Positions 2,960 to 58,844 of a stretch of DNA of 64,000 nucleotides are shown here, piece by piece (position 1 is the first letter of the stretch; every line of letters starts with the position of its first letter). The notes under the pieces were generated by a model. It was not told the DNA's origin, ran no database searches, and worked only from the letters and a program-made list of their open reading frames with translations. The position numbers and the translations under genes were made by a program. The DNA comes from an uncultured virus (IMG/VR IMGVR_UViG_3300023199_000154) (Duplodnaviria; Heunggongvirae; Uroviricota; Caudoviricetes), in the IMG/VR virus record IMGVR_UViG_3300023199_000154. The stretch is one strand, 5' to 3'.

Positions 2960-3382
2960 CTATCGGTTCGGCAGGTGAATCGGGAAGACGAAACAGGGTA
3001 TGCCCACCAGGGCCGCTTCGGTCACCGTGTTCTGCGTGCCCTTGGACCGGATGCCGACTGCAGGAAGCGCGATGCACCGCGGGCGTCTGAACCGCGAGGC
3101 TGCGTCGGCCATGGCCTGATTGCGAGCGTGGAAGGCATGGGGCTTGGGACCGACGGGCGGATACGAGACGACCTCGATCTCGGGCGGACGTACCTGGTTG
3201 TCGGCCCACCAGGCAGCGAGGGAATCGACTCCAGGGTTCCCCGGTCCGGCCCCGTGGAACAGGCGACGCGGCAGGCCCCGTTTGTCGCGGATGCGGTTGA
3301 GCACCGCGGCCACCTGTGCGTAGTCGGATGCCTGGCGAGTGCCGCACACGATCCACACATCGTCGGGACGCTGACGCTTCAC
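2960..3382 (-). CDS. SLOG/YspA-like (DUF2493-type) protein
   Basis: IVCGTR, HGAG..GVDSLA, RNQAM and SKGT motifs. Confidence 0.7.
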   Translation of the reverse strand: MKRQRPDDVWIVCGTRQASDYAQVAAVLNRIRDKRGLPRRLFHGAGPGNPGVDSLAAWWADNQVRPPEIEVVSYPPVGPKPHAFHARNQAMADAASRFRRPRCIALPAVGIRSKGTQNTVTEAALVGIPCFVFPIHLPNR

Positions 3383-21240: not shown

Positions 21241-21270
21241 GACCCCCACGGGGTGGAAAAGTGGGGGGTC
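21241..21270 (-). promoter_or_regulatory. Dispersed motif copy 5, overlapping a putative sigma70-type promoter
   Basis: Minus strand GAC6ACTTTTCCACCCCGTGGGGG; TTTCCA-17 bp-CAGAAT with TG extension upstream of the 21195 gene. Confidence 0.7.
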
Positions 21271-21673
21271 AGGGCACCGGCCAGTAGTAGTCGAGCTTCG
21301 CCTGCTCGTCCCATCCGAACTGACGGTACCACGCGGGGTTCTTGTGAAGGAGCGCTGCGCGGTGGCTCGAATGCAGCCTGCGGATGCCGAGCCACCAGGG
21401 TTTCCGGAAGTCGCCCTGGTCACCCGGAATCGCGAACGACTGCTCGAACCCGCGCTGCTTCCACTCGAGGCAGATCTCACGCAGGTATTGTCGTAGCGCT
21501 GGCGTGAAGCCGCGCCACATCTTCGCCGCGGGGTGATGACACCAGCCGTTCGGCGAGTAGGGGTGGATGGCACCGAGGAGCGTGATCGCTTCTCGCCTCT
21601 GGTTTCCAAGGCGCTTGTCGTCGAGGCACTGCGCGGACTCGCGCAAGCTCGGGTATGGCAAGAAGGTCTGCAC
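21269..21673 (-). CDS. Pyrimidine-dimer DNA glycosylase/DenV-like (MSMEG_6728-type)
   Basis: MQTFLPY, LDDKRLGNQRRE, HPAAKMW and SSHRAALLHK motifs. Confidence 0.85.
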   Translation of the reverse strand: MQTFLPYPSLRESAQCLDDKRLGNQRREAITLLGAIHPYSPNGWCHHPAAKMWRGFTPALRQYLREICLEWKQRGFEQSFAIPGDQGDFRKPWWLGIRRLHSSHRAALLHKNPAWYRQFGWDEQAKLDYYWPVP

Positions 21674-21843: not shown

Positions 21844-23271
21844 TCAGGACCACCCCATTTCTTCCCCGCGGGGGTGTCGGGTCAGTGCGATGGCCTCCTC
21901 GGCGTGACGCTTGTAGATGCTGTCCTTGCCGTCGAGGGCGGCGCAGGCTCGTGCGATGCGAAAGAGGCTCGCATACCGCACCGCGCCGTCTTTCTGCGAA
22001 GCCATTTCCTCGATGGCCTTCAACGCGGACTTCTTGAAGCCGTCGATGACGCTGTTCGGCGCCTGCCGCGACAGCTCCTCACGCGCATCCACGACACGAC
22101 GCTTGAGCGTGGACGACTCCATGCAGGGAGCCTTGGTCTTCGGGCGCTTGATGAGGGGGACCCAGATGCGGATCGGGAGATCTGGCAAGAGGTGATCGAT
22201 GCGCCGCCAGTACCCATCGATCCGATTCGGAGTGCATGAGCACAACGAAGCCCATCCGCAAGGACAAGCGAGCATCGACCCCACGACCATCGGCGAAGCC
22301 GGCAGCACGACGCGCTGATCGGTGCGAGCCACAACAGCATGACCCTCGGCAACCGCCACCTGAACAGCACCGATCGCTCTTCGGCTGAACTCGGGCAGAT
22401 CGTCGAGAAACAGCACGCCGTGGTGCGCGAGCGACACTTCACCCGGCCGAACAGGCGATCCACCGCCCGTCAAAGCCGCTGGAATGCAGGTGTGGTGTGG
22501 CGCACGAAAGGGGCGGGCCATCGGCCTGGTCACCCGAAGCCCAGATGCACTGTGGACGCAGGCGACCTCAAGCTCCTCACGCTCGGTGAGGTCCGGCAGG
22601 ATGCCAGGCAGCCTTCGCGCGAGCATCGTCCTGCCCGATCCAGGCGGCCCGATGAGCAGCACGTTCATCGAAGCGGCCGCAGCCACTGACAAGCCGAAGG
22701 CCGCATCGCGGTGCTCCATCACATCGCTCATGTCCGGGTACCTAGCCGGAGCTGCTGGTGCTCTTCGATCGGCTTTCCGGCTCCACAACAGATCAACCGC
22801 TTCGGCCAGTGAGGACACCTTGTCTACGTGACGGAACACGAAGTACGTCTCGTTCTCGTTGGCGCTCGGTACGAGCGCTCGGCTTCGGCACGCCACCAGC
22901 ATCGGCACCACCCCGCGTACCGGTCGTACCTTGCCAGACAGGGACAGCTCGCCGACGATCAGCCTGTCTTCGAGCGGCGTCGCGTCTTGCCGCAACAGCG
23001 CGATGATGCCGAGCGCAATCGGCAGGTCGAGATGCGACGTGCTGTTCTTGCCAATGTCGGGGAGATGCGCGGTGAAGCACAGGCCAGGCTTCATCTCCAC
23101 ACCCATCTCCTTCAGCGCTGTGACCACGCGGACTCGCGTCTCGCGGACTTGCCTCTCGGGGATCCCCAAGATATCGAGTACCAACCCCGAGCTATCGCTC
23201 ACACCCACCTCGATCTCGATCGGACGCGCATACACGCCCACCAAGATCGCTGTCTCCACATTCACCTTCAT
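21844..23271 (-). CDS. comM: ComM/YifB Mg-chelatase-like ATPase homolog, catalytically degenerate
   Basis: DLPIALG, GELSLSG, PFRAPHH, PGEVSLAHHGVLFLD and CPCG motifs; Walker A reads GPPGSGRT. Confidence 0.9.
   Translation of the reverse strand: MKVNVETAILVGVYARPIEIEVGVSDSSGLVLDILGIPERQVRETRVRVVTALKEMGVEMKPGLCFTAHLPDIGKNSTSHLDLPIALGIIALLRQDATPLEDRLIVGELSLSGKVRPVRGVVPMLVACRSRALVPSANENETYFVFRHVDKVSSLAEAVDLLWSRKADRRAPAAPARYPDMSDVMEHRDAAFGLSVAAAASMNVLLIGPPGSGRTMLARRLPGILPDLTEREELEVACVHSASGLRVTRPMARPFRAPHHTCIPAALTGGGSPVRPGEVSLAHHGVLFLDDLPEFSRRAIGAVQVAVAEGHAVVARTDQRVVLPASPMVVGSMLACPCGWASLCSCTPNRIDGYWRRIDHLLPDLPIRIWVPLIKRPKTKAPCMESSTLKRRVVDAREELSRQAPNSVIDGFKKSALKAIEEMASQKDGAVRYASLFRIARACAALDGKDSIYKRHAEEAIALTRHPRGEEMGWS
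21847..21874 (+). repeat. Dispersed motif copy 6 (variant, last codons of comM)
   Basis: GGA CCACCCC ATTTCTT CCCCGCGGGGG. Confidence 0.7.
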
Positions 23272-23287
23272 CGGTTGCTCCTTTCGG

Positions 23288-23983
23288 TCACCTGCAGCAC
23301 ACCGCCCCTGCGGTCGCGTCGATCGATCTTGGAGTCCAGTACGCGCACGCACCGCATGAGACGACCCGCTTCTGAACATCAGTCGTGAGCCCCATCGGGC
23401 CAGGGTAGGTCCCACTAGATACGGGAATGCCTGCGCAGCTCCGTGTCGAATAGGTGGTCTCGCCTTCGCTTCCATCACACACGCCAGAACGTGGACACCC
23501 CGTGGCGTCGAGACAGGCCGACAGCCAGAAAGTCTGCAACGGCTCGATGCCGCTCCCGCCGCGGTCGAAGTACTCGGACGGCGTGCAGAGGTGCCAGCCC
23601 TCACCGCACAAGCTCGAGGCGTCTGCCTGGACGACAAGCCGTACCGAACACCCGCTCATCGTCTCGCTCCAACGATCGCCCTCCGACCCATCGGCGCAAG
23701 GTGGACGTGGCCCTGCATCGTGACCTGCATCAGGTGTCCGCCCGGCGTCTGTGGAAGCATCAGGCAGAGCAGCATCCAACCCACCAGCATCCGTGGCTGC
23801 ATCGAGCAGGCCAGCATCCCAGCCGGCATCGAGGGACACCGGCCCGCTGTCCGACCCCGCTTCGACCACTTCGCCATCGGTTGGGCAGGGGTTGCCTTCG
23901 GGGGTCCCGCAAACGGCGAAGCTCCCGAAGTCGAGCCAGCAACCCGCAAGCAAGAGAGCACCGAATGCCGCCGCCCGAGTCAC
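23288..23983 (-). CDS. Cys-rich lipoprotein with DAG linker repeats
   Basis: Lipobox LLAGC, DAG/DAA-rich spacer and GAVCC end; typical of myxobacterial lipoproteins. Confidence 0.7.
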   Translation of the reverse strand: MTRAAAFGALLLAGCWLDFGSFAVCGTPEGNPCPTDGEVVEAGSDSGPVSLDAGWDAGLLDAATDAGGLDAALPDASTDAGRTPDAGHDAGPRPPCADGSEGDRWSETMSGCSVRLVVQADASSLCGEGWHLCTPSEYFDRGGSGIEPLQTFWLSACLDATGCPRSGVCDGSEGETTYSTRSCAGIPVSSGTYPGPMGLTTDVQKRVVSCGACAYWTPRSIDATAGAVCCR

Positions 23984-24116
23984 CGGCCACCTCCGATTCG
24001 TCCGAGGAGGGTCCACAGCACGACCCCGCCGACAACGATCACAGCGCCCTTCCACCCAAGGACAGCGCCTGCGATCGCACCCAGCGCTACGATGGTCCAC
24101 GGCTGCCATTGCATTC

Positions 24117-24620: not shown

Positions 24621-24841
24621 ACGACATGCTCCTTGTTCTTGTTCTCGGAACACCACGGTCGGTGGGCTCCAGGAAACTGGTTGCACTCGCGGCATCGCTT
24701 CGGCGCCTTCTGGTAGGTGTTGCCGCACTTGTTGCAGTGGACCTTGAATCCGCGGGCCTTGCCGAACCTGTCCTTGAAGACGTGGACTGCGCCGTAGGGG
24801 ACGTTCGCGCCGCACTGGCACACGATCTTTGCGCTGCTCAC
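24617..24841 (-). CDS. Small zinc-finger protein
   Basis: Multiple Cys pairs. Confidence 0.5.
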   Translation of the reverse strand: MSSAKIVCQCGANVPYGAVHVFKDRFGKARGFKVHCNKCGNTYQKAPKRCRECNQFPGAHRPWCSENKNKEHVV

Positions 24842-25494
24842 GCCGACTCCGATTCGCGCACCAGCATTCCCGCGTCGAGGAAACTGAAGTAGTCGCTTCT
24901 GCCGATGATGATGTGATCGACCACGCGAAGACCCAGCATCTCGCCTCCCTTGCAGAGCATATCGGTGAGCGCGACGTCTTCGGGACTGGGGCTCGATTCG
25001 CCGCTCGGGTGGTTGTGGACGAAGATCGTTGCGTACGCGCCCTCTCGAATCAGCTCACGGAAGACGTCTGCCGGATTCACCGGACAAGTGGTCAGCCCAC
25101 CCTTGCCGACGAGTATCTCGCCACGGATGCGGTTTTTGCTGTCGAGCACCAACACCCAGAACTCCTCGCCGTCGAGATACGCAAGACGCCTGTACTTGTG
25201 GTTCACGTCTCGTGAGCTTCCGATGCGGTCAGGAGGCGGTGGTCGATCCATCCTCCGAGCAAGCTCGCTGATTCCAGCGATGGACTCGCGGAGTCGCTCG
25301 CTCTGGACCATCGAGAGAGACATGCGCTTGCTGATGTCACACGCCGACAGTTTCGGGAGACGCTCGATCGAGCCAGCGGCCTGCAACAACATCTCCGCGT
25401 CCGCTGAATGGATCCCGAGAGCAATCTCCAGAAGCTCCACATCGGTCAGGCTCGAGATTCCGTAGGCGCTTCTCCTCTCGCGAGGCATCATCAC
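24838..25494 (-). CDS. radC: RadC family JAB-domain protein
   Basis: EEFWVLVLD, HNHPSGESSPSPED, VVDHIIIG. Confidence 0.95.
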   Translation of the reverse strand: MMMPRERRSAYGISSLTDVELLEIALGIHSADAEMLLQAAGSIERLPKLSACDISKRMSLSMVQSERLRESIAGISELARRMDRPPPPDRIGSSRDVNHKYRRLAYLDGEEFWVLVLDSKNRIRGEILVGKGGLTTCPVNPADVFRELIREGAYATIFVHNHPSGESSPSPEDVALTDMLCKGGEMLGLRVVDHIIIGRSDYFSFLDAGMLVRESESA

Positions 25495-26174: not shown

Positions 26175-26516
26175 TCAGACCAGGAACTTCTTCTTCGGCG
26201 GCTCGGGCGCGTCTTCGAAGAACGCGCGTACGTAAGCTCGCCTGCTGGATTCGTTGTCGATCTTCCACATCTGCAACTTGCTCTTGACCGGCATCGCCCA
26301 CAGGTGGTCGCTGCACGCAGGGTTGGGCGTCAGCTCGCTGCACGACGGATGACCGCATATGCCGTACAGGAGGTAGCGACGACTTCCGCCAGCCCCCACT
26401 GGAAGCACCTTGTTCGTGCGACTGCATGACGTGCAGCGCAGGTGAATCACCACTCCGGCCCACGCGCCCTGCTTGAGCGGCGGCAGGTCCGCTTCGCAGA
26501 ACACGCACCTCATCAC
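26175..26516 (-). CDS. Cys-rich hypothetical protein
   Basis: Coupled ORF. Confidence 0.55.
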   Translation of the reverse strand: MMRCVFCEADLPPLKQGAWAGVVIHLRCTSCSRTNKVLPVGAGGSRRYLLYGICGHPSCSELTPNPACSDHLWAMPVKSKLQMWKIDNESSRRAYVRAFFEDAPEPPKKKFLV

Positions 26517-27202
26517 CGCCCTCCCTGGAGGAGGCCGCGCACGCCGGCCTCGAGCCTCAGGAACTGGCGACGCAGCGAAGCGGCGTCCTCCGCGTGTCGG
26601 TAGATGCCGCCGGTGGTTTCGGAGATCTTCGTCAGCCTCTCCGCATCCACGTCGGAGCCGAACCCGATGCAGTCGACGATGATGCCCTCCCGAGCCAATC
26701 GCTCTGGAAGAGTCATGGACTCATGCAGGTATTCAGCCGGAATCTCACGCACCGGCGTGCCGTGGTAATCCGCTCCATCCGACAAGAGGATGCCTCGCAG
26801 CACAGGCTCGGTCCGGAGCGTGAGTAAGTCCTCGAACGCCACCAGCGCCTCGTTCATCAACGTTCCTCTCTGGACGAAAAGGCGACCAAGCGTCGACTCG
26901 GGCGATCGGTGATCGAAGTCCGCCACGATGTCGTAGTGCTCGCTGAAGCTCACGATCGCCACATTCGACAGGAGCGAGGCTCGTATCAGATCTCGAGCTG
27001 CATCCTTCGCCGCCTCCAGGCGCGAGGGGTGCCCGTAGCCCGTATCGGGCCCATTGGCTGGCGCGCTCATCGAGAGCGATACGTCGATGGCGATCACCAG
27101 CGCCTCCTTCTTCTCTGCGGTCAGCTCCTTGACGCGCTCGCGCCGCAACCTCTGATTGCGGATCTTGGCGAGCGCGCCGCCCTTCTTCTTCAAGCTGGAC
27201 AT
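26513..27202 (-). CDS. von Willebrand factor A domain protein
   Basis: MIDAS DVSLS, GT, LLSDG, CIGFG. Confidence 0.85.
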   Translation of the reverse strand: MSSLKKKGGALAKIRNQRLRRERVKELTAEKKEALVIAIDVSLSMSAPANGPDTGYGHPSRLEAAKDAARDLIRASLLSNVAIVSFSEHYDIVADFDHRSPESTLGRLFVQRGTLMNEALVAFEDLLTLRTEPVLRGILLSDGADYHGTPVREIPAEYLHESMTLPERLAREGIIVDCIGFGSDVDAERLTKISETTGGIYRHAEDAASLRRQFLRLEAGVRGLLQGGR

Positions 27203-27338
27203 TGGCGTGTGCCTCCTTTTCTGGAGCCGGCCGACGAACACAGGGCGGAGATACACGCCAATGAACTCCCCGATGCTCGCCGGCCGGCTGCAGACAAGGA
27301 GGCCTCCTTGCCGGCAGGTGGCTTTCGCCACGTTCTCG

Positions 27339-28508
27339 TCAGACCTCGATGCGCCTCGGCTGGCCGACGCGGCGCGACAGGTAGCGGTGCGCCATCTCCT
27401 CGAGAGCCAGTCGGCCGTCAGTCTCCTTGTGCTGCGCGGTGCGCGTGATGGCGTTGGCGATCGTGTAGACGCTCGCGCACGACCCGTCGAAGGCCTCGTC
27501 GATCGTCTCGGGCGATGCCTTGGCCGGGAGGTAGAGCTGCATGTCCGAAGCCAGCGTCGAGGACACCTCGCGCGTGTCGCTCACCGTCACCCCGTAGCCG
27601 CGAAGCAGGTCGATGTCAGCCAGCACGTCGTCGACCATTCGGCTGGTGGCCTTCTCCCACTGCTCGAGTTGCCCTCGCGCTTCGGCGAGCACCAGCGGAA
27701 CCGCATCGCGGAAAGCTTCACGGAGCTTGCTCGCGTCGCCGACGTGTCGCAGCTTCGTGGTCGCCTCGGTCTTCCACGCACGCATGCCGTTCTTGCAGAC
27801 CAGTCGGTAGGTCACGCCGCTGATCGACACGGCCCGGTTCCCGACCTCGCCGTTGAGCAGGTCGAGCCCGAACTCGATCGGGTCGCCCTCCCTCACCTCG
27901 ATCGACTCGCCGGGGAAGACGATGCGGATGCAGGTCGTCGGCCCGCTCGCAACCGAGCGGACCCTGGCCGACCTCGACAAGCCCGCCTGCTCGAACACGT
28001 CGTTGATGACGTCGAAGACATAGCGGTCGTCGAGCTCTCCGTAGCGACCGCTCACCAGAGCCCGCGCCTGGTTGCCTGCCGCCAGCCGGAGCTTGCCGTC
28101 GCGCTTGGCCGCGGTGTCGTGGGTGAGCGCCCAATTGAGGTTGGCGAGCTGGAGCTTCGGCGGGAGCCGCAGCATGTAGTCGCTCGGCACGTTGATGCGC
28201 TGACAGAGCTGTCGGAACGCCGTGTTGCGCATCTTGTAGGGTCCGAGGTTCCTCGCGCCCGGCACGGGCACCGGCGCAAGCCCCAGCGTCGTGGACTCAA
28301 TCGGTACCACGGCCCAGCCGCGCATGGAGGCGATGTGCAGGTCGTCGCCGTGCTGGTCGGCTTCGTGCCGCTGCATCACCATGTCCAGGGCTTCGTCGAG
28401 GCGAATCGGATCGCTCCCGAAAGTCAGCCAGTCCTGCACCTGGTCGTCGAGGACGATCAGCGGGTGCTTGTCCATTTGCTCTCTTGCTTCTTGCAGTCTC
28501 GGTTCCAT
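27339..28508 (-). CDS. DUF932-like phage/plasmid protein
   Basis: RALVSGRY, NGEVG, RLVCKNG, NAITRTAQ. Confidence 0.8.
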   Translation of the reverse strand: MEPRLQEAREQMDKHPLIVLDDQVQDWLTFGSDPIRLDEALDMVMQRHEADQHGDDLHIASMRGWAVVPIESTTLGLAPVPVPGARNLGPYKMRNTAFRQLCQRINVPSDYMLRLPPKLQLANLNWALTHDTAAKRDGKLRLAAGNQARALVSGRYGELDDRYVFDVINDVFEQAGLSRSARVRSVASGPTTCIRIVFPGESIEVREGDPIEFGLDLLNGEVGNRAVSISGVTYRLVCKNGMRAWKTEATTKLRHVGDASKLREAFRDAVPLVLAEARGQLEQWEKATSRMVDDVLADIDLLRGYGVTVSDTREVSSTLASDMQLYLPAKASPETIDEAFDGSCASVYTIANAITRTAQHKETDGRLALEEMAHRYLSRRVGQPRRIEV

Positions 28509-52089: not shown

Positions 52090-53712
52090 CTAGCTGATCG
52101 GAAAATCCTTGTACCGCTTGACCATGTGATGTGGCGGTTGCCAGCCCGGCTTCTTGCCGCTCACGCTCGCATCGAGTGCGAGCCACCGTGGCGCCTCCGA
52201 GTGCGGCGGGATGCCAACCATCAGGTAGATGTGGTCGAAGTCCGGGGACTCCACCGTCTGGATCACACGCGCCTTCACGGGGTAGCCGATGGACTCGAGC
52301 ATCGCGCCGAGCGTGATCGTGTAGTCGTCGCACTGGCGAGTGATCACGTCACTTTCCGGTAGATACACGCGACCCGAAGTAGTCATCAGGTCATAGCAGT
52401 GCACCTGCTCGTCCTCGACGGTGATCGATCGAACCTTCGCCCACGGCCGCCTGATGTGGTCTCGACGAACGGTGAGCCGGTGAATCGGGTTGGCTCCGAA
52501 CCCGCCATGAGCCACGACGGTCGCCATCGAGGTAGAGAATCCTTCCATGCGCTTGAGCACCCGGTACGCCAGTGCCAACTCCTTGCTCACCGTGGAGAAC
52601 ACCGTGTTCCCGCCAGAGGAGACTCCAGCATCACCCTGCTCGAGCGCTGCCACCATCGTGGCAATCGTGCGGGGGCCGAAGCGGAAGTGAGGTAGGTGCT
52701 TTTCGATGGAGATGCGACCGAACACCTCGGACTTCGGCCAGTCTGTTGCCCTGAAGCGGATCTCGCGGTCGCGCTTGCGGAACCTGATGCCGCGCGACTC
52801 GAGGATTTCTTCCACCCGCTCTCGAACGCCCTTGCCGCCGACAACCCCTGCCAGCGAAATCTCCGGAAAGACGTCGCTGCCCTTCTTCTTGGTCACGCGA
52901 CAACCCTCTGCGAGGTAGGCACCGGCGAGGTAGGCGTCGTCCTCGTCCCACTCCTCGTCGCCGCCGGCCATGAAGGATCGGGGCTGCAGCAGATCATCCC
53001 CGACCCGAAGGTCCGACATCAGCGCTTCCTCGGCGGAACCATATTCCCCAGGACGGTTACCGCCCAAACCGCGCGGCACGCGAAGCACCTTGTGGTTGTC
53101 GCTCAAACGAAGCGACGAGCCGTTGTTCAGATCAGCGCGGACGATCGTCTTCGGGCCGCGATCCCACGTCTGGAGAACATCCACCCACCGCTCTCCATCG
53201 TGGATCGTGTCGCCAACTTCGAGGTTCTCGACCGGGACGAATCCGTCTGGTGTGAGCAACATCGTGCCCTCGGGGAAACAGTCTCCGCCACCGAACTCGA
53301 GCGTGCGCTTGGGGTGCTGGAACAGATCGGCATGCAGCGGATCGCGGACGTACCGGACGTTCTGGCGGATGTAGTTGTACACCGCACGGACCTCCCCGAT
53401 ATAGTCGCGCTCGCGGATGCAATGCTTGGTGCCACACTTCTTGCTCACGACCTTCACCGCGAGCGCTCGGAACCGAGGGTCGTTTCGAGCCTTCGCCACC
53501 TGCTTCTGGATGAACTTCACCCGCTCCTTGATGTTGCGCACCTGGTGGGTGGACATGACCATCTTGGATGGCTCCGAAGGATGCGACGGGGCAGCGGTTG
53601 CCAGGGCCGGGCGACGTCGGCGCTGCTCTCTCCCCTCCCTCAACGCATCGTTCAACTGCTGCGCGCCGTTCATCAGGCTCACCGCGCCAGCGAATAGCTT
53701 CTGGAAGTCCAT
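52090..53712 (-). CDS. Transglutaminase-like cysteine protease containing an intein
   Basis: VRYVRDP, PKRTL..GGGD|CDD, FDHIY and LALDAS give a Cys-His-Asp triad after splicing. Confidence 0.9.
   Translation of the reverse strand: MDFQKLFAGAVSLMNGAQQLNDALREGREQRRRRPALATAAPSHPSEPSKMVMSTHQVRNIKERVKFIQKQVAKARNDPRFRALAVKVVSKKCGTKHCIRERDYIGEVRAVYNYIRQNVRYVRDPLHADLFQHPKRTLEFGGGDCFPEGTMLLTPDGFVPVENLEVGDTIHDGERWVDVLQTWDRGPKTIVRADLNNGSSLRLSDNHKVLRVPRGLGGNRPGEYGSAEEALMSDLRVGDDLLQPRSFMAGGDEEWDEDDAYLAGAYLAEGCRVTKKKGSDVFPEISLAGVVGGKGVRERVEEILESRGIRFRKRDREIRFRATDWPKSEVFGRISIEKHLPHFRFGPRTIATMVAALEQGDAGVSSGGNTVFSTVSKELALAYRVLKRMEGFSTSMATVVAHGGFGANPIHRLTVRRDHIRRPWAKVRSITVEDEQVHCYDLMTTSGRVYLPESDVITRQCDDYTITLGAMLESIGYPVKARVIQTVESPDFDHIYLMVGIPPHSEAPRWLALDASVSGKKPGWQPPHHMVKRYKDFPIS
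52333..53280 (-). mobile_element. Intein (316 aa) with LAGLIDADG-type endonuclease region
   Basis: Block A CFPEGT, block B SDNH, YLAGAYLAEG, STVSKELA, block F CYDL, ending ITRQ before Cys. Confidence 0.9.
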
Positions 53713-53770
53713 CGCCTCCAGACTACCTGCGAGCACCACCCAGCGGCAACCGGGTGGTATCCTCCCCACC

Positions 53771-54130
53771 ATGAGCCTGTGGCCAGGATTGGGGCTTTTG
53801 GGTCTGGGGGCGATGCTCGGTGCGTCGCGCGGGCTGTGCTACCAGCGCGCGCTTCGGCTTCTTCGCTCGATGGATGAGCGTGCCGATGGCGGCACCCAGG
53901 CCGAGCTGGTGCATGGATCTGTTCACCTCCCCGACTACGGGAAAAACATCCGCCACCACGCTTGGGTCGAGACCGAAGACATGATCTTCGACCCAGAAAT
54001 CGACCTCGAGCTCGACAAGGAGGAAGCGCGCGAAAAGGGCATCCTCTACCGACCCGAGGCGCGATACACGGCCGAGGAAACCCTCATCCTCGCCTTGCGC
54101 ACGGGCCATTACGGCCCATGGCACAAGTAG
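53771..54130 (+). CDS. Small protein with N-terminal TM and C..H(AW)..D motif (papain/transglutaminase-like)
   Basis: GLCYQ, LVHG, HAWVE, IFDP, YGPW. Confidence 0.55.
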   Translation: MSLWPGLGLLGLGAMLGASRGLCYQRALRLLRSMDERADGGTQAELVHGSVHLPDYGKNIRHHAWVETEDMIFDPEIDLELDKEEAREKGILYRPEARYTAEETLILALRTGHYGPWHK

Positions 54131-55821: not shown

Positions 55822-57900
55822 TCAGCCCATGGCCGGCGCCAGGTCGCGCGCCGGATCGTCTTCCTCGACCTCCCCGGTCGGCTCGGGATCGGAAGACTCG
55901 TCCTCCTCGGGGGGCTCGTGCGCAGTCGGCGGATCTTCTTCGTCAGCGTCGTCTCCGTCGATGGCGTCTTCGTTCTCGTCGGCCGCCTCCTCCTCCACGC
56001 GCTCCTGCTCGATGGACGTGTCGAGACCCACCGCCTCCTGCGGCTCGGGGTCGGGCTCCGAAACCGGCTGCTCGCCCGCGGCGGCCGCGGCGTAGCGAGC
56101 GTAGTCCTCGTCGGTGATCTCTACCGCGTCGTCGTCGTCCTCGACCTCGGGGACCTCCGGCTCGGGGCGCTCGTCGTTGCTGGGGCCGCCGACCGGAGGG
56201 ACACGAGACGAGGCACGGTGCTCGGTGTGAGGCACGTAGGGGTCGGGATCCTCGTCGTGCTCCATGCCGAGTGCCTTGCACACCGCCAACCAGTGCTCGC
56301 GCACGCCGAGGATGACCTTCTTGACCGTATCGAGGTGCTTGATCGTGCCCGCCTCGTGGATACCGATGAGTATCTCGCCGAGCAGCTTGAGGCAGTCCTT
56401 CTTCTTGTTGGCTCGCGCAAGATGGATGACCTTCATCACGTAGGGGCGGAAGTCGGGGCTCTTGGCGGCGAGATGCTGGAGACCCTCGAGCGCGCTTCGT
56501 ATGAGCATCGCGACATCGGGTGGGTCGCTCTGTGCGTAGTGGTCCATCTTCTCGGCGTGCGTGTTGAAGGACGGAGGGATCTCAAGCGCGCCATCGTCCT
56601 CGTCCTCGTCATCCGAACCCGGGGGCAACTGCCGATTCTGCGTACCTGGCGGCTGCTCCTGTCCCTTGCCGCCGATGGCTTCCTGCAAGGCCTCGCCGAG
56701 CTTCTCCCCGACGGGTGTTCCGCCGAGGAAGTCGCGAGCGAAGTCCCAGAATCCACCGGTGCTCCCGCCGAACTCCTGGCTCATCTCCCCGAACACCTGC
56801 TTCATGTGCCGGTACTCCTTGAGCTGGTCTTCGAGCGACCGCGGTCCCTGAGAGCCGGGGGCACGCTGTGCGGTGGGGTCGAGCTCTCGGATCTCCTTCA
56901 TCATCGCGATGTAGTCTCGGAAGCCCATCTCCTCCTTCTTGGCACCGAACATCTCCTGCATCACGCGAAGCTCCTGCAGGAACTCCTGACGGCTGTTCTG
57001 TTGGGGCGGCGGCGGGGGCGGCGGCTGCATCGACTTCTGCATCGCAGCGAAGGCCTCGATCATCTTCGAGAAGCCCTCCATCGGATCAAGCGGCGGGGGC
57101 GGCGGCGGCATCGGAGGCATCGACGGCCCCTCGGAGCGCTTCGACACGCGACGTTCGAGCTGCTCGAGCCGATCGACGAGCTTCATCACGATGGGGTCGA
57201 GGCCGCCCTTCTGTGAGCCCCTCTCGCGGTCCATCATCATCATCATCATCAGGGCGCTGCTTGCGTCGCCCTTGCCCTCGTTGAGCTGCTTCTGGAGCGC
57301 GAGCATGCGCTCGAGCTGTTGTACCGGATCGATGTTCTTGCCCTCGTTCTGGATCTGCTTGCTCATCTCCATCAGCTCGCGGATGGTGCTCGTCTCACGG
57401 GCCCGGGGTTCGGCCTCATCCTTGGGCTTGCGGATGTAGACGCTCGGGAGCTCGGCGAGCTTCTCGCGCGGGGTGCCGGGCTTGCCGACGCGGATCACGT
57501 ACTCGCCGTAGTCGAACTGCGGTACGAGGTACTTGCGGATGAAGCCCTCGAGGGAGGAGGCGCGCTGGATCTCGCCCATCGCGTACTCGTTGCACCACTC
57601 CTCCTTGCCGGTCTCGCCGATGTACCAGATGTGAATCCGCTCCTCGGAACCGGTCACGAGTTGGCGAGCCTTGGTCGCCTTGGTGGCGGTGCGCCGGCGC
57701 GGGTTCTGCGCCGCACGAATCTGCTGCTCGACCTTCTCCTGGTCGATGGGGCCGCCCGATTCCTCCTCTTCGGCAGACGCACCGGCACCGTTCGCCTTCG
57801 CCGGCTTGGTCTCCCCCTTGCCTGTCGTCGCCAGCGGCGCCCCCTCCTTGAGCTGGTCGGCCAGGTCAGCGGCGGTCTTGTTCTTCGTGGTCGTGCTCAC
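55822..57900 (-). CDS. Large Met/Gln/Pro-rich helical protein with acidic tail
   Basis: 692 aa, MMMMMM run, poly-Pro, coupled to the recombinase. Confidence 0.8.
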   Translation of the reverse strand: MSTTTKNKTAADLADQLKEGAPLATTGKGETKPAKANGAGASAEEEESGGPIDQEKVEQQIRAAQNPRRRTATKATKARQLVTGSEERIHIWYIGETGKEEWCNEYAMGEIQRASSLEGFIRKYLVPQFDYGEYVIRVGKPGTPREKLAELPSVYIRKPKDEAEPRARETSTIRELMEMSKQIQNEGKNIDPVQQLERMLALQKQLNEGKGDASSALMMMMMMDRERGSQKGGLDPIVMKLVDRLEQLERRVSKRSEGPSMPPMPPPPPPLDPMEGFSKMIEAFAAMQKSMQPPPPPPPQQNSRQEFLQELRVMQEMFGAKKEEMGFRDYIAMMKEIRELDPTAQRAPGSQGPRSLEDQLKEYRHMKQVFGEMSQEFGGSTGGFWDFARDFLGGTPVGEKLGEALQEAIGGKGQEQPPGTQNRQLPPGSDDEDEDDGALEIPPSFNTHAEKMDHYAQSDPPDVAMLIRSALEGLQHLAAKSPDFRPYVMKVIHLARANKKKDCLKLLGEILIGIHEAGTIKHLDTVKKVILGVREHWLAVCKALGMEHDEDPDPYVPHTEHRASSRVPPVGGPSNDERPEPEVPEVEDDDDAVEITDEDYARYAAAAAGEQPVSEPDPEPQEAVGLDTSIEQERVEEEAADENEDAIDGDDADEEDPPTAHEPPEEDESSDPEPTGEVEEDDPARDLAPAMG

Positions 57901-58844
57901 GCAGCTTCCTCCGGTTCATCAATGAATCGCACCGAGCGCAGTCGGCGCAGAACGTTCGCCATGTCGTGCTGGACGTAGTGACGCGCGGTCACCCGAGCGA
58001 TGCCGCTGCCCGCTCGCGGCGCCTCGTGCCCGAGCAGCTGCATCACCAGAAACTCACTCACCCCGAGCTCGTCGAGCCTCGTCGCGTAGGTATGCCGGAG
58101 CACATGCGAGGTGAAGTCGGATATCCCAGTCATGTCCCGGACTGCCTCAATGTGCAGCCGCAGCGATCGGGTGGTCATCGGCTTCTTGTTCTTCGAGGGG
58201 AACAGCCACTTCGGGTCCGCATGCCGCGCCCGCCACTCCCCGAGGTAGTCGATGAGCTGGTCGCGGCCCTCAAGGAGCATCGGGACCTTCCTCCGCTTGC
58301 GCCCCTTGCCGAGGACATCGAACGCCACCCAGCGCAGGTCCTCGAAGTCTGGATCTGTGACGAGCTCGATGCTCCCGAGCTCGAGCTTGACCACCTCCTG
58401 CGAGCGCATCCCCGTCAGCGCCATCACCGTCAACGCCGTCCCCGAAGGCTCGGGTACGTCGAGGAAGGCATCGAGCACCTCCCGATGCTCCGAAACGGTC
58501 AGCACTCGCGGCGGGTTGTGCTCGGCCTTCGGCACGTCGGGGTCGTGGAAGTCGACCAGCGTCTCCCCCTGCCGCCGCCGGAAGCGCACGTACTGCTGGG
58601 CGCCGATGAGCATCAAACGAACCGTCGTCGCCCGCATCCCCTCGGTGTGAACCAGCCAGCCGACGAAATCCTCCAGCATGTTCGGGGGCATATCGGTCAG
58701 CGAGACGTAGCCCTCGGGTGGATCCTCCCCGAGGAACCGCATCAGCTTGCGCGCCGCACGAGCGTAAACCCGCGCCGTCTCCCTGGACTTCGTGGTCGTC
58801 ATTCGGCGCTCGAAGGCGTCGATGCTGAGGTCCAACTCCACCAA
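57897..58844 (-). CDS. Tyrosine recombinase/integrase (XerC/D-like)
   Basis: TGMRSQE, GKG, HVLRH, LLGH and HY give the full R-K-H-R-H-Y set. Confidence 0.95.
   Translation of the reverse strand: MVELDLSIDAFERRMTTTKSRETARVYARAARKLMRFLGEDPPEGYVSLTDMPPNMLEDFVGWLVHTEGMRATTVRLMLIGAQQYVRFRRRQGETLVDFHDPDVPKAEHNPPRVLTVSEHREVLDAFLDVPEPSGTALTVMALTGMRSQEVVKLELGSIELVTDPDFEDLRWVAFDVLGKGRKRRKVPMLLEGRDQLIDYLGEWRARHADPKWLFPSKNKKPMTTRSLRLHIEAVRDMTGISDFTSHVLRHTYATRLDELGVSEFLVMQLLGHEAPRAGSGIARVTARHYVQHDMANVLRRLRSVRFIDEPEEAA

Follow-up and report, generated by a model that had tools for sequence, protein, structure and literature searches.

ComM is the branch-migration motor dedicated to natural transformation in Gram-negative bacteria, and why it should be so frequent a target of mobile genetic elements (MGEs) is an open question of the field (PMC12378983). 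Its hexamers form with nucleotide and DNA, DNA binding needs nucleotide, and ComM depends on its Walker A lysine to bind DNA, to act as a helicase and to work in vivo, with the K224A variant losing DNA binding (PMC6158740). Within the ring, the cis-acting residues are K224, T225 and the Walker B glutamate, whereas R316 and R463 come from the neighbouring subunit, and R463 of the lid is identified as the arginine finger (PMC11612176). DprA recruits ComM through the ComM C-terminal domain, by interface residues that are named for Vibrio cholerae and stated not to be conserved (PMC12012524). Many cases of comM inactivated by the insertion of mobile elements have been listed, and MGEs also encode trans-acting inhibitors of competence, namely the small RNA RocRp, Prx (paratox), ComI and Rok-LS20; the review includes no element-encoded ComM homologue in its list (PMC12378983). 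Here we describe such a homologue, the 475-amino-acid (aa) protein P0001, encoded on the minus strand of a 64,000-nucleotide (nt) stretch of DNA from an uncultured virus of the Caudoviricetes (IMG/VR record IMGVR_UViG_3300023199_000154), hereafter the window.

In our judgement P0001 is probably a non-motor derived from ComM that a temperate phage-like element retains as a mimic of its host's branch-migration helicase, one that does not hydrolyse ATP. What is new here is a pseudo-AAA+ derivative of ComM that is carried by mobile elements; the insertional knock-out of comM has already been documented. No phage- or MGE-borne homologue of ComM/YifB, and no degenerate ATP site in one, was found in the literature listings searched, which did not extend to subscription journals.

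The closest described proteins are the ComMs of Legionella pneumophila (8rxd, 8rxt) and V. cholerae, which have in common with P0001 a Lon-like N-domain, an AAA+ core of the MCM/Mg-chelatase type with a zinc ribbon, and a helical lid, and whose helix-2-insert and pre-sensor-1 pore loops are kept in P0001. The differences are that P0001 lacks the Walker A lysine, the Walker B glutamate, sensor 1 and all three trans-acting arginines, that its lid is shorter, and that it resides on a phage-like element rather than on a chromosome. In magnesium chelatase, BchD/ChlD is the degenerate AAA+ partner of BchI/ChlI and works by assembly with or beside the active ring. It is, like P0001, a catalytically degenerate paralogue, and it belongs to the same AAA+ clade; however, BchD has its own vWA domain and a known active partner, whereas the VWA domain in the window is encoded by a separate gene. 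With the insertional knock-outs of comM (AbaR islands, serine-recombinase islands and prophages) the locus shares the encounter of a mobile element with the same host function. Those insertions destroy the host gene in cis, whereas P0001 is a whole altered copy that could act only in trans, and its gene lies 35 kb from the integrase and not at an end of the element. The inhibitors RocRp, Prx, ComI and Rok-LS20 are made by plasmids or prophages and lower transformation, but none of those listed is a homologue of a recombination motor or hits ComM at the protein level (PMC12378983).

The P0001 gene is an uninterrupted minus-strand open reading frame (ORF) of 475 codons with a Shine-Dalgarno-like site (Table 1), and the first-pass annotation was right to call it intact. 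Its ATG at 23271 lies 16 nt beyond the stop codon of the upstream ORF. We take this ATG as the start because reading from the alternative TTG at 23637 overlaps the upstream ORF and because the family alignment begins at residues 1-5. The GC content at the three codon positions (0.66/0.49/0.76) is coding-like. P0001 matches the Pfam models PF01078 (Mg_chelatase AAA+ core; 1.5e-55, 188.2 bits) and PF13541 (Lon-like ChlI N-domain; 2.4e-19, 69.8 bits, cut-off 27), and this latter match together with the fold model bears out the earlier statement that the N-terminal domain is retained. Scores fall below the cut-offs for PF13335 (Mg_chelatase_C; 14.9 bits against 26) and for the NCBIfam YifB model TIGR00368 (277.7 bits against a curated 362.4). 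PHROGs held no family for P0001 at E <= 1e-5, and PADLOC returned one weak match (RtcR AAA, 2.1e-05).

Among solved structures, the best match is L. pneumophila ComM 8rxd (2.5e-63, residues 7-461). An AlphaFold2 model built from a 70-row alignment is confident throughout, with a predicted local distance difference test (pLDDT) score of 92.8 and a predicted template-modelling (TM) score (pTM) of 0.91. When this model was searched with Foldseek, the ComM chains 8rxt_A and 8rxd_D came first (TM 0.80), followed by Lon, BchI and MCM. The model still has a four-helix lid despite the sub-cut-off Mg_chelatase_C score. P0001 is therefore predicted with high confidence to have the ComM/YifB fold.

For the ATP site, P0001 residues were matched to the numbering of the ComM structure paper through the alignment with 8rxd; by chain index the Walker B pair of 8rxd is D302-E303 where the paper writes E302, and we relied on the alignment (PMC11612176). 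Six of the eight mapped positions are replaced in P0001 (K224 to R214, the Walker B glutamate to D291, N346 to L334, R316 to Q304, R381 to D364 and R463 to V431), while T215 and D290 are kept. All three trans-acting arginines (ComM R316, R381 and R463) are gone. The motif strings on which the first-pass annotation relied (GPPGSGRT, LFLDDLPEF, GSMLACPCG, DHLLPDLP, PFRAPHH and PGEVSLAHHG) are all present, as is the AGG codon of R214, and to the four losses it had recognized our mapping adds those of the sensor-3 arginine (Q304) and of the lid arginine (V431). The family alignment that it had proposed as a check shows that among 268 aligned relatives the canonical residue dominates at all four sites, occurring in 260 at the Walker A lysine, 263 at the Walker B glutamate, 246 at the sensor-1 asparagine and 219 at the LLDR arginine.

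These replacements are concentrated where catalysis would occur. P0001 keeps 81 of the 116 columns conserved to 95% or more among 115 canonical ComMs (its relative P0002, described below, keeps 83 of 116), and the changes fall on six of eight ATP-site columns compared with 29 of 108 other conserved columns (Fisher p = 0.009). The trans-face motifs LRQPLE and SGPLLDRxD, which belong to the subunit interface, have been rewritten. Judged from these residues, the ATP site has presumably lost its activity. By alignment and structural model, catalytic residues are lost while the fold is kept, which is the pattern of a pseudoenzyme. We infer that P0001 cannot drive branch migration, because its hydrolysis site appears dismantled and because ComM is known to require its Walker A lysine and its cis- and trans-acting residues. 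Thus a near full-length ComM homologue with a degenerate ATP site, as first proposed, is what the locus encodes; the further claim that every motif has been inactivated carries the caveat that a Walker B aspartate pair (DD) also occurs in otherwise canonical cellular ComMs.

Features involved in holding DNA have fared differently. Of eight DNA-contact positions, six are kept or still basic: the helix-2-insert loop, R316, R350 and R357 (the counterparts of ComM R366 and K373), and R43 and R46 of the N-domain, which match ComM K43 and K46 and keep the basic charge. The counterparts of ComM R369 and of ComM K64 (C65 here) are lost. The pore loops, the zinc-ribbon cysteines (Table 1) and the P-loop glycines are intact. 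A protein of this kind would at most bind nucleotide and DNA, or ComM partners, and would occupy DNA intermediates or ComM assemblies instead of moving DNA. Candidate targets are the ComM rings of the host, intermediates of recombination that involve either incoming DNA or that of the element, and a partner encoded by the phage.

A single close relative of P0001 was found among ~15 billion proteins. This protein, P0002 (479 aa, on a 2,989-nt contig), is 48-49% identical to P0001, and scores in the P0001 search fall from 441 bits for P0002 to 268 bits for the next best match. The alignment of the two is collinear, with 11 gap positions in 482 columns, and keeps clade-specific motifs that include a C-terminal tail (EEAIAL..P.GEE.G.S) common to P0001 and P0002 only. 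Such collinearity is hard to reconcile with a long period of neutral decay. P0002 retains the Walker A lysine, the DE pair and the sensor-1 asparagine, and its three arginine positions are occupied by V, W and I. As P0002 keeps the cis residues but lacks the same three arginines, the most parsimonious history would be an early loss of the trans arginines, followed in the P0001 line by that of the cis residues.

A ratio of nonsynonymous to synonymous divergence (dN/dS) for viral homologues, which the first-pass annotation had wanted, was obtained for the single pair of finger-less genes from viral contigs that are similar enough to allow it, L051 and L053 (90% identity, 372 codons, dN 0.056, dS 0.53, dN/dS 0.107). 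This finger-less, lid-less gene is under strong purifying selection, and the value speaks against neutral decay for that pair. The element itself is present in two DNA runs of one study, as a 75,653-nt contig at a depth of 46 in what is probably the source run and as identical pieces at ~5x in the other; no RNA run is listed as containing it. Surplus depth at 22382-22449, seen in all three runs, comes from comM genes of other community members whose reads align to the conserved stretch PGEVSLAHHGVLFLD; variants of the element were considered as its source and ruled out.

Loss of the arginines is not confined to P0001 and P0002. Among the 267 top aligned database relatives, 49 lack the LLDR arginine and are termed finger-less here. 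This set was taken after dropping P0003 (483 aa), which has an internal duplication of the Walker A-to-Walker B segment and possibly results from misassembly. Of the 49 finger-less proteins, 43 keep the Walker A lysine versus 216 of the 218 that retain the LLDR arginine, and 45 keep the Walker B DE pair versus 215 of 218. For the sensor-1 asparagine the numbers are 32 of 49 versus 214 of 218, for the sensor-3 arginine 21 of 49 versus 211 of 218, and for the lid arginine 7 of 49 versus 210 of 218.

When IMG/VR was scanned with 25 aligned finger-less proteins, 64 loci were returned, from which 57 translated ORFs of at least 250 aa were aligned; two fusions, L041 (1,091 aa) and L062 (1,233 aa), in which the ComM-like part is joined to other sequence, were left out. 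Three kinds of locus are represented. Eleven (L015, L016, L018, L020, L022, L024, L025, L027, L028, L033 and L035) hold a canonical comM that breaks off near its sensor-1 codons, as known from elements that insert into this gene, with eight of the 11 stopping right after ..AAMN, so that from these junctions the sensor-1 region of comM looks like a common prophage attachment point. In about ten others the gene is canonical (seven full-length, three partial) and retains LLDRxD. The third kind comprises about 28 genes that are divergent and finger-less, many of them inside viral contigs as large as 300 kb (GC content 0.54-0.75); the 28 keep the lysine in 23 cases, DE in 23 (DD in 4), the asparagine in 14, the sensor-3 arginine in 6 and the lid arginine in 4; many have almost nothing past the AAA+ core. 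P0001 has the most degenerate motif set among the relatives seen. In INPHARED, 28-29 records of isolated phages match, none above 60% identity, and those checked by name are bacterial pieces or prophages that cut comM. Matches on plasmids are chromids or chromosomes with YifB-annotated genes.

A bolder proposition is that mobile elements of high-GC bacteria have repeatedly turned the comM of their hosts into an arginine-less and often lid-less mimic that enters or blocks ComM/RecA recombination complexes, with P0001 as the most stripped-down example; we consider this unlikely as a general statement. On this proposition, the mimic would be the protein-level counterpart of the insertional comM knock-out, and would stop an incoming element from being recombined away or disturbed. 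Arginine-less copies of ComM on elements would also give a second, experimentally tractable handle on the conflict between comM and these elements, and such a copy would be a natural separation-of-function allele for the coupling of ATP to DNA movement in the ComM ring.

Table 1. Positions of the ComM-like gene, its motifs and selected neighbours in the window, and of RadC-like genes at other loci.
Feature	Position	Strand	Remark
ComM/YifB-like coding sequence, 475 aa (P0001)	21844..23271	-	Stop codon 21844-21846
Shine-Dalgarno-like site GAAAGGAG	23278..23285	-	6 nt before the ATG at 23269-23271; read directly
N-terminal Lon-protease-like (ChlI) domain, residues ~1-165	22777..23271	-	PF13541 2.4e-19; alignment to 8rxd
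Walker A GPPGSGRT, residues 208-215	22627..22650	-	Lysine replaced by R214 (codon AGG, 22630-22632); glycines, T215 and M216 kept
RPFRAPHH motif, residues 253-260	22492..22515	-	Invariant in canonical and divergent relatives
Helix-2-insert pore loop GGGSPVRPG, residues 269-277 (ComM 281-289)	22441..22467	-	Kept
Walker B VLFLDD, residues 286-291	22399..22416	-	Glutamate replaced by D291; D290 kept
Q304 at sensor-3 position (ComM R316, trans-acting)	22360..22362	-	LRQPLE motif, here VQVAVA
R316 (ComM R328), pre-sensor-1 beta-hairpin, DNA contact	22324..22326	-	Kept
L334 at sensor-1 asparagine position (ComM N346)	22270..22272	-	Family AAMNPCPCG, here GSMLACPCG
Zinc-ribbon cysteines C336, C338, C344, C346	22234..22266	-	4/4 kept
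DHLLPDLP, residues 359-366	22174..22197	-	Replaces family SGPLLDRxD; D364 at ComM R381
Short helical lid, residues ~376-475	21847..22146	-	PF13335 14.9 bits, under cut-off; V431 at ComM R463 position, R432 adjacent
Pyrimidine-dimer glycosylase	21269-21673		Profile match
RadC-like JAB protein, HNHPSG metal motif	24838..25494	-	Pfam RadC 4.7e-34; upstream of the ComM-like gene, same array
VWA gene	26513-27331	-	Profile match; directly after the DUF932 gene, 3.2 kb upstream of the ComM-like gene
DUF932 protein	27339..28508	-	First gene of the DUF932-RadC-ComM-like order
Tyrosine integrase	57897-58844		Profile match; 35 kb from the ComM-like gene
RadC-like JAB genes beside divergent ComM-like genes	L004:10679-11122, L032:1451-2164, L037:7066-7713, L047:185-835, L085:6221-7060		

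The genes around P0001 offer one alternative that we hold as a tentative possibility, namely that the protein is a static DNA-binding accessory of the entry or recombination module of the element, independent of host ComM. With similar caution, it can be pictured sitting on branched or single-stranded element DNA together with RadC, DUF932, nucleases and Sak4-type proteins. The retained basic residues of the pore loops and of the Lon domain fit this role, as does the one-direction array in which the gene lies together with those for RadC, the pyrimidine-dimer glycosylase, DUF932, VWA, a Sak4-like protein, a PD-(D/E)XK nuclease and ParB. Genes for RadC-JAB proteins occur within 3.5 kb of ComM-like genes in five of 29 loci (window counted), with L068 as an additional case, and the two genes overlap by 4 nt in L047 and are 25 nt apart in L032. 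Other neighbours of ComM-like genes include DUF3560, PcfJ, DUF4942 and DUF6908, which we take to be families typical of the entry regions of conjugative elements.

The order DUF932-RadC-PD-(D/E)XK-ComM-like is common to the window and to an otherwise unrelated contig. The latter (L068, contig C16, 75,184 nt) belongs to a metagenome-assembled genome (MAG) of the Polyangiales and has the same gene order and direction as the window, with identities of 39% for DUF932, 51% for RadC and 36.5% for the ComM-like protein; its cassette also holds the PD-(D/E)XK/Cas4-like nuclease. The divergence of the ComM-like gene is similar to that of its cassette neighbours, and its product is likewise finger-less (Walker A lysine, DD, alanine at sensor 1, no arginines). 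In the rest of that contig, which is unrelated to the window (only three ORFs match overall), Cro/CI-type regulators, an SNF2 helicase and an MmeI-type enzyme are encoded. A homologue of DUF932 is found near the ComM-like gene in L030 as well as in L068.

An accessory role is weakened by the lack of a universal partner, RadC alone clustering with ComM-like genes across loci and no other neighbour family occurring in more than three of the 29. Also, DNA binding by ComM requires nucleotide (PMC6158740), and RadC and DUF932 have no known function, so the module says little. A complex prediction for P0001 with the RadC protein of the window scored 0.00 and carries no weight either way. If P0001 does serve the DNA transactions of its own element, it would add a new pseudo-AAA+ component to the RadC/DUF932 entry modules, which are poorly understood. 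A partnership with VWA proteins, an idea taken from PMC7159879, was ruled out, as none of the 111 neighbour ORFs of 28 ComM-like loci encodes VWA.

We are more doubtful that P0001 acts as the first-pass annotation had imagined, by co-assembling with host ComM, giving no arginines and stalling the hexamer, which would lower transformation and, with it, the frequency at which the element is cured. Several ring helicases are stalled by a single dead subunit. The pattern of cis residues kept and trans residues lost in P0002 and in most relatives on viral contigs (23 of 28) is what such a poison might look like, and beyond P0002 its nearest sequences belong to canonical ComMs, that of Sandaracinus among them. 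The element carries an integrase, MGEs often knock out comM by insertion (PMC12378983), and the viral contigs hold the 11 cut comM junctions. Furthermore, the Polyangiales MAG with the sister cassette has an intact canonical comM (494 bits, over the TIGR00368 cut-off), with recA directly downstream of it on the same strand (L082, 416-2988 (-), contig C51 of MAG G001). Through its binning, this cassette weakly points to comM-bearing hosts of the Polyangiales type for the element in the window.

Against co-assembly stands the low identity of P0001 to cellular ComMs: 37% to the canonical ComM of this MAG (to which the ComM-like protein of the MAG itself is 46% identical) and 37-44% to any cellular ComM seen, with 44% for the best match. 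The motifs of the subunit interface are rewritten, and P0001 lacks the Walker A lysine and sensor 1, while ComM K224A loses DNA binding (PMC6158740). The C-terminal domain, which in ComM docks onto DprA, is short, divergent and under the Pfam cut-off in P0001 and is absent in many relatives. Many carriers are viral contigs of 100-300 kb, for which protection from curing answers no obvious need. A different notion, that an element sitting in comM brings a spare copy of the gene it interrupts, was ruled out: the gene is complete, lies mid-array and is 35 kb from the integrase.

Several results weigh against a ComM-derived non-motor and deserve to be set beside it. The origin of finger-less proteins is ambiguous: a hidden Markov model (HMM) of 47 of them, from which P0001 and P0002 were excluded, gives P0001 a score of 481.8 bits versus 430.7 bits for a model of the 218 canonical proteins, and the finger-less model is preferred by 25 of the 28 viral finger-less genes while all seven viral canonical genes prefer the canonical one. 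A neighbour-joining (NJ) tree computed without the motif columns (78 sequences, 376 columns, 200 bootstraps), by contrast, joins P0001 and P0002 at 100% and gives 0% at every deeper node, and by distance over the same columns the nearest proteins to P0001 after P0002 are canonical ComMs, that of Sandaracinus amylolyticus first. When all columns were used, NJ placed the finger-less proteins together, which may reflect long-branch attraction and shared losses. The evidence for one lineage versus many is therefore conflicting, and the genes may have been captured from hosts more than once, followed by convergent loss. As for the element, no convincing profile match to a capsid, portal or terminase was obtained among the proteins of the window; we call it phage-like and probably temperate. 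The dN/dS value comes from one pair that is distant from P0001, and the P0001 gene shows no variants in either DNA run. Finally, its GC content at third codon positions (GC3) is 0.76, towards the bottom of the range of 0.75-0.9 in which most genes of the window lie.

The remaining objections concern the chemistry. The exchanges of lysine for arginine and of glutamate for aspartate are conservative and preserve charge, and R432 adjoins the position of the lost lid arginine (V431). Moreover, in a scan of one genome per species with the peptide FLDDLPEF, at least five of the 16 loci found carry the Walker B DD with the lysine, the asparagine and the three arginines all canonical (L066, L067, L069, L071 and L073, which are cellular comM genes). 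The Walker B change taken alone cannot be counted as inactivating because it is a natural variant of apparently ordinary ComMs. One contig of a Thermoanaerobaculaceae MAG carries three ComM-like copies with DD and a sensor-1 serine (L072, L074 and L077). From the conservative exchanges, the natural DD variants and R432, P0001 may retain residual or re-wired ATPase activity. That it is still an active ATPase or helicase, with R214 and a D291 base in the site and R432 or R368, which both adjoin lost arginine positions, as substitute fingers, nevertheless strikes us as improbable, even with the P-loop glycines, T215 and M216 in place. Six departures occur together, including sensor 1 (N to L) and three arginines, each at a position at least 95% conserved in the family, and ComM function requires the Walker A lysine (PMC6158740).

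Least probable of all is that P0001 is a decaying, functionless relic of a captured comM: its extreme motif degeneracy, somewhat low GC3, sub-cut-off TIGR00368 score and single close relative would agree with decay, but the 475 codons hold no stop or frameshift despite ~50% divergence from an intact and collinear P0002, most family-conserved positions are kept, the model is confident, the Shine-Dalgarno site is at the right distance, and purifying selection acts on the related finger-less pair.

The minus strand of the window carries nearly all of its predicted genes. In addition to the features in Table 1, profile matches were found for ParB, a Sak4-like protein, a PD-(D/E)XK exonuclease, an RNase T-type exonuclease, a Dam-type methylase, an M23 peptidase and an HNH endonuclease; no tRNAs were found in the window. 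Promoter and terminator scans around the P0001 gene gave nothing better than shuffled sequences, and the same holds for folding of the 177-nt spacer downstream of it. The ORF directly upstream (23288-24109, minus strand) has no match in Pfam, PHROG or PADLOC; it carries a lipoprotein-type signal (..LLLAGC), contains D/A/G-rich repeats and a Cys-rich C-terminal part, and has a flat codon-position GC content (0.65/0.66/0.66). A small SLOG/YspA-like protein is encoded at 2960-3382 on the minus strand (Pfam YAcAr 3e-06, just under the cut-off; PHROG 289). Another minus-strand gene, at 52090-53772, specifies a 560-aa protein that is mostly an intein (Hint and LAGLIDADG), and whose nearest Atlas clusters are 91-98% viral.

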